From NCBI RefSeq assembly GCF_048403405.1, contig NZ_CP183129.1: a stretch of 64,000 bases of DNA; one strand, written 5' to 3'. The translations under genes and the position numbers were made by a program. The notes beneath the pieces are model-generated. The model had not been told where the DNA came from. It was given only the letters and a program-made list of their open reading frames with translations, and made no database searches. Source of the stretch: Escherichia coli (GTDB lineage Bacteria; Pseudomonadota; Gammaproteobacteria; Enterobacterales; Enterobacteriaceae). Position 1 is the first letter of the stretch. Every line of letters begins with the position of its first letter. This document shows, one piece after another, positions 8,804-42,883 of this stretch.

Positions 8804-8843
8804 TCTTGTGCATGATGTTTTCGAAAAGAATGCAGAAATAAAT

Positions 8844-14740: not shown

Positions 14741-14772
14741 GAAAAGGCCGGACGACGATAGTGTCGTCCGGC
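14741..14772 (-). terminator. hairpin after tsgA
   Basis: Inverted repeat gccggacgac/gtcgtccggc immediately 3' of tsgA stop. Confidence 0.5.
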
Positions 14773-14780
14773 ATGAACAA

Positions 14781-18334: not shown

Positions 18335-19573
<1,239 letters not shown>

Positions 19574-19630
19574 GACGCATCAGGCCAAAGATGTCGGATG
19601 CGGCGTGAACGCTGTATCCGATGGTTTAGC
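19574..19630. repeat. REP-like extragenic palindromic element
   Basis: gtcggatgcggcgtgaacgctgtatccg resembles the REP consensus; sits between convergent argD and yhfK. Confidence 0.4.
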
Positions 19631-19635
19631 CTGCA

Positions 19636-21726
19636 TTACGCCTTCGAATCCCGCAACTTGCGACTCAGCCAAATCCCGTGATGCGGTCGCTGACGCCATG
19701 CCATCGACGAAATGGTGTGCATGGTGTTCAGATGACCAATAACCCGCTGTAAATGCTGTTCCAGCGTACCTGCCGCGCCTTCGTGCGGCTGCATCTCCGG
19801 CGCATCCATGATATTGGCATCGCCAGAACTACCCGGTTCGTCATACTCTAGTCGCTGCTGACAACGCTGAATGGCGATTTCACAAGACTGTAAATACTCT
19901 TGTGCCAGTTCAGGTGGCAATGCCCGGTGTTCCCGCGCCAGCGTGGTCATGGCATTAATATGCTCAACAATAAACTGGCTGTGCGTTACCCACAGTTTCA
20001 TATCTGCCAGATAATGGCTGTTAAACGCCGGTTCCTGCATCGCCTGATTCAATGAGTTATACAGAGTGTTATGCGCTTGATTCACCCGCATTCGCTGCCA
20101 GGCCAGTGGCGTAGGTTGCGGATCCTCGCTCAGAATCAAGCGAATCGCTTCCTGATAGGCTTCTAAAGCGTCATGGGCGTTCTTACGCAATAACCCGCTC
20201 TGCCACTGCGGCCACAGCCAGACAGTACCGCCGAAAGCAATTAAACAACCAATAATGGTATCGATAAGACGTGGAAGGATGTACTGCTCACCGTTCAACC
20301 ACAATAGTTGCAGGGTATACACTGCGGTAATGGTAAAACCGACCGTCGCCCAGCCGTAGTTTTTGCGCAATATCAGGTAGCTGGCGAGGGTGGTAATCAG
20401 CATCAGGGTCAGGGTGTAACCTTCGGGAATTTTAAAGTGCAGGGCAACGCCCGCAATGATTAACCCGACCACGGTTCCCACGGAGCGATTCACAATCCTC
20501 AGACGGGTTGCGCCATAGCCATTTTGCGTCACCAGCAATACCGTCATCAGGATCCAGTACGACTTCGGCAGATGCAGTGCGGTGCCCATCAGGCTGGCAA
20601 CGCTTAACATCACACTGAGTCGTCCGGCATTGCGTAGCGCTGGAGACTTTAGTGACAGATAACTTTTCAGCGCCGGAAGTAACGGCATTCGCCGCTGTTT
20701 ATCGGCCAGTAAGTCACGGGCATAGAGCGGTTTTTGGGTGCGCAGCACGCGGGCGATGCGGCTGAAATGCCAGTAGCAGAATTGCCCAACCGGATTATCC
20801 GGATGCTGGCGGGCGATTTTTTCCAGTGCGCCAATTTGCTTCTCCATCGTAAAACGCGTCGGCAGGCGATGGTAAAGAATGTCATCAGCCAGCACGCGCA
20901 GGCGAGCGGCGACGGTTTGCGCATTCCAGCGGATAACTTCTTCCGCATGGCTACGCTCGACCAGTTTTTGCACCTCTTCCGGCTGATGCAAACTGACCGA
21001 AATATGTTCCTGTAAATCCAGCGCCTCCTGGAAAATACGCAGCATCCGCTTGTAATCGGTATTATTTTGCGCGGAAAGCATATGCATTTGCTGATAGCAC
21101 TGGGTAATTAGATCGACCGCTTTTTGCTGGCGCACCAGCAGCGGCGGCAGCGCTTTTTCAGGGTCGGTGTGCTGGGTAAGCAGGCTGTATTTGGCTTCAC
21201 AATAATCTGCCAGTTCGCGGTACAGCAGACTTAGTGACTCGCGCAGCGGTTGTTCGCGCCAGATCCAGAACCAAAACCAGTTAAACAATCCGTACCAGAG
21301 AGTGCCCAACGCATAGATGAGCAACGGTTCCCAGACCGGCATGTATCCTGCCAGACTGAGGGTAAAAATGGCGGCGAGCAGCGATGCGGGAAGCAATTTT
21401 GCGTGCAATGGCCCCAGCTCAGCAGTGACGCCAAGTACCAGCGTTAATCCGGTCAGCAAAAAGGGCAGAGGAACATCTTTTGCCAGTAGTAGCTGTGTCA
21501 GCAAGCTACAGGTGGCAAACAGCGACGCACCAATGATTAAGCGTTTGAAAAAACGTTTATGAGGCGTATCAAGGCCCGCAATATTGCAACAGGCAGGAAC
21601 GAGGGAGAAGAGCAGACCGAATCGTAATTCGCCAAGCATTAACCCAACGGCCACGGGCAAACATAGCACCAGCGTTTGTCGAAGTGCATAGTTGATATCG
21701 GGGTGATAAATCAGTCTGCGCCACAT
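19636..21726 (-). CDS. yhfK: inner membrane protein YhfK
   Basis: About 696 aa from MWRRL start; hydrophobic N-terminal half. Confidence 0.85.
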   Translation of the reverse strand: MWRRLIYHPDINYALRQTLVLCLPVAVGLMLGELRFGLLFSLVPACCNIAGLDTPHKRFFKRLIIGASLFATCSLLTQLLLAKDVPLPFLLTGLTLVLGVTAELGPLHAKLLPASLLAAIFTLSLAGYMPVWEPLLIYALGTLWYGLFNWFWFWIWREQPLRESLSLLYRELADYCEAKYSLLTQHTDPEKALPPLLVRQQKAVDLITQCYQQMHMLSAQNNTDYKRMLRIFQEALDLQEHISVSLHQPEEVQKLVERSHAEEVIRWNAQTVAARLRVLADDILYHRLPTRFTMEKQIGALEKIARQHPDNPVGQFCYWHFSRIARVLRTQKPLYARDLLADKQRRMPLLPALKSYLSLKSPALRNAGRLSVMLSVASLMGTALHLPKSYWILMTVLLVTQNGYGATRLRIVNRSVGTVVGLIIAGVALHFKIPEGYTLTLMLITTLASYLILRKNYGWATVGFTITAVYTLQLLWLNGEQYILPRLIDTIIGCLIAFGGTVWLWPQWQSGLLRKNAHDALEAYQEAIRLILSEDPQPTPLAWQRMRVNQAHNTLYNSLNQAMQEPAFNSHYLADMKLWVTHSQFIVEHINAMTTLAREHRALPPELAQEYLQSCEIAIQRCQQRLEYDEPGSSGDANIMDAPEMQPHEGAAGTLEQHLQRVIGHLNTMHTISSMAWRQRPHHGIWLSRKLRDSKA

Positions 21727-21730
21727 CGGG

Positions 21731-21765
21731 GGAAACAAAATGGCGCGCTACCAGGTAACGCGCCA
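21731..21765 (-). terminator. terminator after crp
   Basis: Hairpin gcgcg-ttacctggta-gcgcg followed by a T-rich run on the minus strand. Confidence 0.6.
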
Positions 21766-38411: not shown

Positions 38412-38439
38412 AAAAAGGGCGCTTCGGCGCCCTTTTTGC
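38412..38439 (+). terminator. terminator after tufA
   Basis: Hairpin aaaagggcgc-ttcg-gcgccctttttg. Confidence 0.65.
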
Positions 38440-38569
38440 TGCCCGTAATTTGAGCTCGAAATATTTAGTCGTAATTTCACTCGCTGAACTATGGCGCAAA
38501 TAAAACTGTGCTATTGTAATCATAACCATTCTCATTTACACTTTGCGCAGAATTTGAACGGGAGCAATC

Positions 38570-38764
38570 ATGTACGTTTGTTTGTGTAATGGTGTAAGTG
38601 ACAAAAAAATTCGCCAGGCAGTCCGTCAGTTTCATCCGCAATCTTTCCAACAATTGCGTAAGTTTATTCCTGTGGGAAATCAATGCGGTAAGTGCATTCG
38701 CGCCGCGCGCGAAGTGATGCAGGACGAGTTGATGCAGATGCCAGAATTTAAAGAGATTGCCTGA
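38570..38764 (+). CDS. bfd: bacterioferritin-associated ferredoxin
   Basis: 64 aa with CxC...CGKC [2Fe-2S] ligands. Confidence 0.9.
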   Translation: MYVCLCNGVSDKKIRQAVRQFHPQSFQQLRKFIPVGNQCGKCIRAAREVMQDELMQMPEFKEIA

Positions 38765-38836
38765 AGCCCACGCTTATTTTTTGACATCCCGCTAGCCCCA
38801 TCTACGCTCTAATAGTGGAAGCGGAGGGACTATAAA

Positions 38837-39313
38837 ATGAAAGGTGATGTTAAAATCATAAATTATCTCAATAAACTATTGGGAAATGAGCTTGTCGCAA
38901 TCAATCAGTATTTTCTCCATGCCCGGATGTTTAAAAACTGGGGCCTGATGCGTCTCAATGACGTCGAATACCATGAATCTATCGATGAGATGAAACACGC
39001 TGATAAATATATCGAGCGTATTTTGTTTTTAGAAGGAATCCCCAACTTACAGGATTTAGGCAAACTGGGGATTGGTGAAGATGTCGAGGAGATGCTGCAA
39101 TCCGACCTGCGATTAGAACTGGAAGGCGCTAAGGATCTCCGTGAGGCTATCGCGTATGCCGACAGCGTTCATGACTATGTTAGCCGTGATATGATGATCG
39201 AGATCCTTGCCGATGAAGAAGGTCATATTGACTGGCTCGAAACTGAGCTGGATCTCATCGGTAAAATCGGTCTACAAAATTACCTGCAATCACAAATAAA
39301 AGTTAAAGATTAA
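38837..39313 (+). CDS. bfr: bacterioferritin
   Basis: 158 aa ferritin-like. Confidence 0.95.

Positions 39314-40487: not shown

Positions 40488-42883
<2,396 letters not shown>

Follow-up and report, generated by a model that had tools for sequence, protein, structure and literature searches.

A degenerate REP-like palindrome, apparently left by a single BIME-2-type unit, in the spacer between the convergent genes argD and yhfK of Escherichia coli

REPs and BIMEs are the most abundant and the longest-studied repeats of E. coli. REP325 is a multi-copy tandem BIME-2 array, composed in K-12 of five 100-bp-spaced repeats and terminal copies, and yields processed RNAs. BIME-2 is defined as a pair of inversely oriented REPs, one y and one z2, with a short linker between them (Ton-Hoang et al., PMC3333891), and the tetranucleotide GTAG as well as the stem mismatch is needed for binding and cleavage by TnpAREP (PMC3333891). 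About 60% of REPs are located between convergent genes, and a REP is found in 207 of 704 convergent pairs, where it goes together with higher expression of both genes; for terminal REPs, no general influence on mRNA half-life was seen (bioRxiv 10.64898/2026.03.23.713779). In the passages of PMC12306157 that deal with REP hairpins in 3'UTRs, these are described as blocking 3'-5' exonucleases, stabilising the upstream mRNA and being able to attenuate transcription. Stable stem-loops devoid of a U tract mark the trimmed ends of Rho-dependent transcripts, and 24% of these are REPs (PMC6061677). The genes argD and yhfK appear in the supplement of the above preprint in the expression table only (bioRxiv 10.64898/2026.03.23.713779), and a literature search for yhfK, argD and REP mentioned together returned nothing.

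The window, i.e. the whole stretch of DNA analysed here, is 64,000 nt of E. coli chromosome. The 462 nt around the element are 100% identical to strain 4621, whose RefSeq record gives the flanking genes as argD (+) and yhfK (-), followed by crp, and they are found in 5,425 of 5,426 complete genomes. The spacer measures 62 nt, exactly 19574-19635, and is bounded by the stop codons of both genes. The features of the locus are the following.

18350-19573, + strand: argD, convergent with yhfK
19571-19573, + strand: argD stop codon, followed by the outer stem after 7 nt and by the core stem after 18 nt
19574-19635: argD-yhfK spacer, by its sequence one vestigial BIME-2-type unit made of z2 remnant, short linker, y palindrome and flank
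19570-19585, + strand: z2 REP remnant, ATAAGACGC^ATCAGGC, assigned by positional homology, overlapping the argD stop codon
19586-19591: S-type short linker, caaaga in the window and AAAAGA in K-12, joining the non-GTAG ends of both REPs
19592-19623, + strand: y-type REP palindrome in iREP orientation, recognised by a match to the model R1 (see below), 24/26 core identity, an inverted repeat and an RNA stem
19624-19635: right flank gtttagcctgca, contributing the 3' side of the outer stem
19636-19638, - strand: yhfK stop codon, followed in yhfK sense by the outer stem after 2 nt and by the core stem after 12 nt
19636-21738, - strand: yhfK, convergent with argD

The first-pass annotation had placed a palindromic element between convergent argD and yhfK, and this is borne out by the spacer 19574-19635, which holds both an inverted repeat, with arms at 19594-19606 and 19609-19621, and a stem; the string it quoted, gtcggatgcggcgtgaacgctgtatccg, is located at 19593-19620. 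Its reading of the spacer as a REP element holds, while it missed that this element is the y half of a decayed two-REP BIME filling the whole spacer, that GTAG/CTAC is gone from it and that its score is well under that of intact REPs. The further statement that the element abuts the yhfK stop codon is right for the interval 19574-19635, the core palindrome itself ending 12 nt short of it. The y REP is thus extragenic and situated at the 3' ends of two convergent genes.

The window also differs from K-12 in gene content. The K-12 frlABCD-frlR block (about 5.2 kb; L003 35692-40935) is absent at about 8804-8834 of the window, and so is the REP that K-12 has between frlR and yhfS, to which R1 gives 37.7 bits. 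At 38439-39294 the K-12 chiA gene (about 3.1 kb) has no counterpart; the bfr/bfd side adjoining this site is 78.7% identical to K-12, which suggests that gene content beyond it differs.

The identity of the palindrome was addressed by model searches. The RefSeq table of K-12 has no REP entry at argD-yhfK, nor anywhere in K-12, and omits also the yaaX-yaaA REPs, which score about 60 and 33 bits with the models built here. Its silence on REPs is therefore uninformative, and the family was derived from the data by counting 11-mers in 175 kb of K-12 (four loci). The commonest repeated 11-mers of this sequence assemble into TGCCGGATGCGGCGTAAACGCCTTATCCGGCCTAC (y) and TGCCTGATGCGACGCT...GCGTCTTATCAGGCCTAC (z2); REP 11-mers are its most repeated words, the family being present in many dispersed copies, and the variant TGTCGGATGCG, which is the one carried by the argD-yhfK element, occurs 8 times. 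A covariance model, R1, was trained on 15 y REPs taken from ten K-12 loci elsewhere, and the whole window was scanned with filters off. The scan gave a match at 19594-19621 (+) with 27.4 bits and E = 3.2e-6, covering model positions 3-30 of 35, followed by a next-best match of 11.4 bits (E = 0.37), and the argD-yhfK element is the only copy with a significant R1 score in the 64-kb window. A search of the window with the 26-nt y core consensus returned it as the sole match, at 2 mismatches and with 0.00 expected by chance, and nhmmer with the de novo y consensus recovered the K-12 copy at E = 0.006 over consensus positions 2-28. The likeness to the REP consensus claimed in the first-pass annotation, for which a formal search with REP models had been proposed, is confirmed by this single significant R1 match and by the 24/26 identity of the core.

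The score itself is low for a REP. The K-12 allele of the element reaches 34.4 bits, intact y REPs give 50-65 bits, about twice the window's score, and z-type REPs are cross-matched by R1 at 31-44 bits. What R1 leaves unmatched in the argD-yhfK y REP is the outermost foot pair and the CCTAC tail; as the match stops at position 30 of 35, the CTAC tail is missing. The palindrome has no GTAG/CTAC tetranucleotide at its foot; CCGATGGTTTAG takes the place of the CCGACCTAC that canonical copies and the sister species have. The palindrome has the foot variant GTC...GAT and the loop TGAA at 19606-19609, and its CTAC tail is deleted; its stem bubble, GC/TT in K-12 and GC/TC in ST131, is GC/GT in the window, with one mismatch closed. 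Given the results of R1, nhmmer and the consensus search, the element is, as judged from its sequence, a genuine but truncated and degenerate y REP. The wording "REP-like" is the right one for it, because it is only the y half of a decayed BIME, has no GTAG/CTAC and scores well below intact REPs.

Two further palindromes of the window are weakly REP-like, 14743-14773 (-), UGCCGGAC...GUCCGGCCUUU, just downstream of tsgA as judged from the K-12 counterpart, and 42041-42088 (-), UGUCGG...CCGACUUAC. With the y and z2 models they score 10.6-12.1 bits (E = 0.3-0.7), which is not significant.

The reading that the palindrome is due to chance, or is an ordinary intrinsic bidirectional terminator unrelated to REPs, could appeal to the missing entry in the K-12 RefSeq table and to Rfam, where the results were confined to sub-threshold hits to naRNA4 (19.0 bits on the - strand and 16.6 bits on the + strand, E = 1.2 and 4.1, against a gathering score of 59.5) and unrelated noise. 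However, the RefSeq table omits all REP features; Rfam holds no REP family, its only relative being naRNA4, derived from REP325. The R1 E-value of 3.2e-6 and the 0.00 consensus matches expected by chance speak against this reading, as do the homology of the spacer to intact BIMEs and the lack of a U tract on either strand. It is already refuted, and we give it practically no credence.

The remainder of the spacer can be read by alignment to known BIMEs. It aligns end to end with the z2-S-y units of K-12 at gltP-yjcO, yjcH-acs, yjdN-yjdM and gmhA-yafJ, and its linker has the same position as, and a length similar to, the short linkers of the gltP-yjcO and yjcH-acs BIMEs. The z2 remnant is 16 nt long and has neither the GTAG foot nor 11 nt of the apex. 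The window was scanned with R2, the covariance model for z2, and no match was obtained at the remnant, so that the z2 identity of 19570-19585 in the window is a matter of positional homology only. The allele of strain SCU-484 keeps the 11-nt apex; its reverse strand, TGCCTGATGCGACGCTGACGCGTCTTAT, equals the z2 consensus over 28 nt and then runs into the argD stop, and R2 scores it at 30.4 bits (E = 6e-7). On E. albertii and on locus L011 the same model gives 52.8 and 49.5 bits. By homology, the order y plus z2, the inverse orientation and the short linker of a BIME-2 are all present at argD-yhfK; the tandem multicopy feature is not, there being a single unit. Assignment of the left remnant to z1 was considered and rejected: it has the long form, which is called z2 at yafL-rayT in PMC3333891.

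The left end of the spacer touches the coding sequence of argD. At 19562-19573 the window carries a 1-nt deletion just before the stop (GGGGCG to GGGGG), and therefore ArgD ends in ...VIGGK (407 aa), as compared to ...VVGA (406 aa) in K-12. Translation now stops at a TAA that is part of the z2 REP remnant. A locus span of 119 nt, matching this deletion, is found in about 5 of 60 evenly sampled genomes.

For the y REPs within BIME-2 a role at the DNA level is described, gyrase cleavage sites being over-represented in BIME-2 and located for the most part at the loops and stem mismatches of y REPs (PMC6379681). The y palindrome is kept at argD-yhfK and by analogy could act as a DNA gyrase site. 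We hold this to be highly unlikely, as the enrichment is reported for a subset of multi-copy BIME-2 arrays, whereas argD-yhfK has a single decayed unit, and as the stem bubble is partly closed in the window allele.

The history of the spacer was addressed by comparison with other species, the YhfK C-terminus being used to retrieve 80 of their loci. In Enterobacter, Kosakonia, Phytobacter, Cedecea, Trabulsiella, Franconibacter and others the two stops overlap or are 0-2 nt apart. E. albertii, E. whittamii and two further Escherichia lineages have a spacer of 93-115 nt with a full BIME, and Citrobacter and Salmonella show other REP arrangements at the argD-yhfK junction. The y REPs of the sister Escherichia end in a CCTAC or TCTAC tail and score 46-62 bits with R1 over the full model, and their z2 REPs score 27.6-52.8 bits with R2; after y, they have CCTAC and about 23-28 nt of flank unlike that of E. 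coli. Three stretches are gone from E. coli proper: 16 nt with the z2 GTAG foot, a loss common to E. whittamii; the 11-nt apex of z2, in most strains; and about 15 nt with the CCTAC of y. From the y stem to the yhfK stop there are about 28-33 nt in the sister species versus 12 nt in the E. coli window. MAFFT drew the right end as an 8-nt insertion (TGGTTTAG) splitting the y foot from a CCTGC tail; this was rejected in favour of a deleted tetranucleotide, because the sister species have GGTTTGC... as their native flank after CCTAC.

Several details of the junction in other genera are worth recording. The frames of argD and yhfK overlap by 4-11 nt in many Enterobacteriaceae (L035, L033, L045 and others, near 2390-2400), and in Enterobacter sichuanensis the two genes share a palindromic TTAA. 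In the Citrobacter and Salmonella loci (L013-L032, about 2400-2500) several Citrobacter carry tail-to-tail REP pairs, while Salmonella arizonae and diarizonae have a single REP without GTAG at the junction. An apparent Enterobacter-type repeat (GCCCGGCGGCGCTGCG...) is present at the junction in L052, L056 and L059. The argD-yhfK junction seems to be a recurrent landing site.

The spread of the element within the species was determined by blastn against 5,426 complete E. coli genomes, using as query the 131-nt locus of SCU-484; this replaced a 51-nt megablast count of the undeleted allele, which was confounded by z2 copies elsewhere in the genome. The locus is held by 5,425 of the 5,426 genomes, which settles the strain comparison proposed in the first-pass annotation. 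Even sampling along the ranked list of the 5,425 genomes gave 59 chromosomal rows, and in every one of these the locus spans 119-131 nt. About 198 records are at least 95% identical to the query, which corresponds to a kept z2 apex; the remaining records are 80-95% identical, and all such rows among the 60 sampled span 119-120 nt, which corresponds to the 11-nt deletion. The apex is thus lost in about 96% of the 5,425 genomes, and the indel is polymorphic within E. coli. The exact 87-nt allele of the window is found in 169 genomes. Elsewhere in each genome the query has further matches, with a median of 27, and it therefore belongs to a dispersed repeat family.

In the ST131 strain 5506 (L005 3264-5900) yhfK is disrupted by ISEc23, an element of the IS66 family, at a point about 100 nt upstream of the yhfK stop. 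An IS insertion into the REP of this strain was considered and rejected, since the IS66 element is inside the yhfK coding sequence and the REP spacer is intact.

The series of species shows the following course of events. A z2 plus y unit of BIME-2 type, in inverse orientation and with a short linker, was inserted between argD and yhfK in an Escherichia ancestor. In E. coli proper, small deletions then took away the foot of z2 with its GTAG, the apex of z2 (in most strains) and the y tail CTAC, leaving the 32-nt y palindrome as the only REP still recognisable in the spacer. The spacer is a fixed, single-copy fossil of one BIME-2-type unit with no GTAG/CTAC. Given the loss of the z2 GTAG foot, the z2 apex and the y CTAC tail, it is taken as immobile, and the element should no longer be a substrate of the REP-associated transposase. 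An active mobile REP or REPIN, bound and cut by RAYT/TnpAREP, would be consistent with the kept y core and with the rayT gene encoded by K-12. It is nevertheless extremely improbable: the GTAG/CTAC of y and the GTAG foot of z2 are both deleted, so that by sequence reading the GTAG needed by TnpAREP is absent from y and from the z2 remnant alike, the bubble is altered in the window allele, and the element is a single copy at a fixed position in 5,425 of 5,426 genomes.

As RNA, the y palindrome folds into a 14-bp stem (19592-19605 with 19610-19623) closed by the loop TGAA, and outer pairs between 19581-19589 and 19625-19633 lengthen this stem, ttt (19625-19627) pairing with aaa (19587-19589) and gcctg (19629-19633) with caggc (19581-19585). 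The outer stem is present in the folds of all four E. coli alleles considered (window, K-12, ST131 and SCU-484). In argD sense the 62-nt spacer folds with a dG of -30.4 kcal/mol (z = -4.45; 0 of 200 shuffles as good), and in yhfK sense with a dG of -24.2 kcal/mol (z = -3.74); on both strands of all four alleles z ranges from -3.0 to -5.0. The core hairpin of the window allele has -21.6 kcal/mol in argD sense versus -11.3 kcal/mol in yhfK sense, and that of canonical y REPs about -19 to -21 kcal/mol in either sense. No terminator-like site was found on either strand of the window or the K-12 allele, nor a promoter-like motif in either allele of the spacer. As the stem lacks a U tract after it, the hairpin does not qualify as a classical intrinsic terminator.

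From the literature on REP hairpins, the hairpin is therefore taken as a passive 3'-end barrier and attenuator. Both convergent transcripts would read through the argD-yhfK spacer, and the y hairpin with its outer CAGGC/GCCUG stem would form at the 3' end of each; once transcription has ended further downstream, by Rho or diffusely, it would halt trimming by PNPase and RNase II, and it may dampen transcription running on into the opposing gene. By analogy with other REPs, both 3'UTRs probably still contain the folded y hairpin, which would hold up exonucleases or attenuate transcription. We consider it likely that the spacer is best explained as a BIME fossil whose y hairpin would serve as 3'-end barrier or attenuator in both convergent transcripts; that the hairpin has a measurable effect on argD or yhfK, which would follow by the same analogy, stands at roughly even odds.

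A neutral fossil, transcribed without measurable effect on argD or yhfK and persisting as nothing removes it, is a possible reading which in our view falls somewhat short of probable. Pairwise divergence of the spacer among the four E. coli alleles is 8.1-9.7%, compared to 5.8-8.3% at four-fold sites of argD and yhfK; as it equals or exceeds the synonymous rate, the spacer taken in its entirety gives no indication of purifying selection. The erosion by three independent deletions, the polymorphism of the 11-nt indel within the species and the many genera with overlapping stops and no spacer point the same way. Within the y REP, the E. coli alleles differ from one another only at six bases of the 3' upper arm and bubble (window 19610-19615), where the ancestral CGCCTT has become CGCTGT in the window, TGCCTT in K-12 and CACCTC in ST131. 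With a constant 5' arm and no compensatory substitutions, the stem has no covariation support, which again fits neutrality. The same alignment also argues against it, since the eight Escherichia sequences compared show no variation in the lower stem or anywhere in the 5' arm, with the exception of the E. albertii foot. The four alleles all keep folds at z of -3.0 to -5.0 on both strands, and genome-wide REPs in convergent pairs go with higher expression (bioRxiv 10.64898/2026.03.23.713779). Two of the changes in the y palindrome, from a small sample, close the canonical bubble and make the palindrome more perfect, as a template-switch correction would.

The position of the hairpin in yhfK sense raises another reading, compatible with the barrier/attenuator explanation, in which a hairpin less than 16 nt past the stop codon stalls the terminating ribosome and less YhfK is made. 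In the passages of PMC12306157 citing Liang, Rudd and Deutscher 2015, REPs whose distance to the stop is below 16 nt are reported to lower translation. The core stem begins 12 nt and the outer stem 2 nt past the yhfK stop. A deletion of roughly 15 nt, peculiar to E. coli, moved the hairpin closer than the about 28-33 nt of the sister species. We regard such a brake as unlikely, the yhfK-sense core hairpin being weak (-11.3 kcal/mol versus about -19 to -21 kcal/mol in canonical y REPs). In a stronger version, the E. coli deletions joined the z2 3' foot CAGGC with a new GCCTG into a composite hairpin, which was selected as a compact bidirectional 3'-end element and YhfK brake. Only 2 nt separate this hairpin from the yhfK stop, and 7 nt from that of argD; its selection in that role appears distinctly unlikely to us.

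The barrier/attenuator explanation is the preferred one. The element is of a known kind, an ordinary member of the REP family, degenerate and immobile. One more degenerate REP at such a place is to be expected, because about 30% of convergent gene pairs have one. Its teaching value is modest and resides in the series from overlapping stops (many genera) over an intact BIME (sister Escherichia) to a GTAG-less BIME (E. coli), in which a mobile repeat is seen becoming a fixed piece of 3'UTR. The argD allele of the window adds that a repeat-derived sequence can supply the stop codon of a gene.

Compared to the y-type REPs of E. coli, the argD-yhfK copy has the same imperfect palindrome, GC-rich and 32 nt long, its core agreeing with the consensus at 24 of 26 bases, the same GTC...GA foot variant as is found in the gltP-yjcO array, and the same extragenic location at convergent 3' ends. 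It differs in having neither CTAC/GTAG nor the outermost foot pair, in its GC/GT bubble instead of GC/TT, and in a score of 27 versus 50-65 bits. With BIME-2 it shares the inverse orientation of y and z2, with the non-GTAG ends joined by a linker of 5-7 nt, and it matches the gltP-yjcO, yjcH-acs, yjdN-yjdM and gmhA-yafJ units column for column; in contrast to BIME-2 arrays it is a single unit without tandem repetition, its z2 is 16 nt long, and both GTAG-side ends are missing. REP325/naRNA4 (RF02564, yjdM-yjdN), also composed of y and z2 units, is the sole Rfam family to match weakly, on both strands, and differs from the one decayed unit of argD-yhfK, which scores 19 bits versus the threshold of 59.5. 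Finally, the spacer resembles the protective non-U-tract 3' stem-loops of Dar and Sorek 2018, which belong to Rho-dependent transcripts, in having a predicted stable hairpin just past the stop, no U tract and convergent genes.
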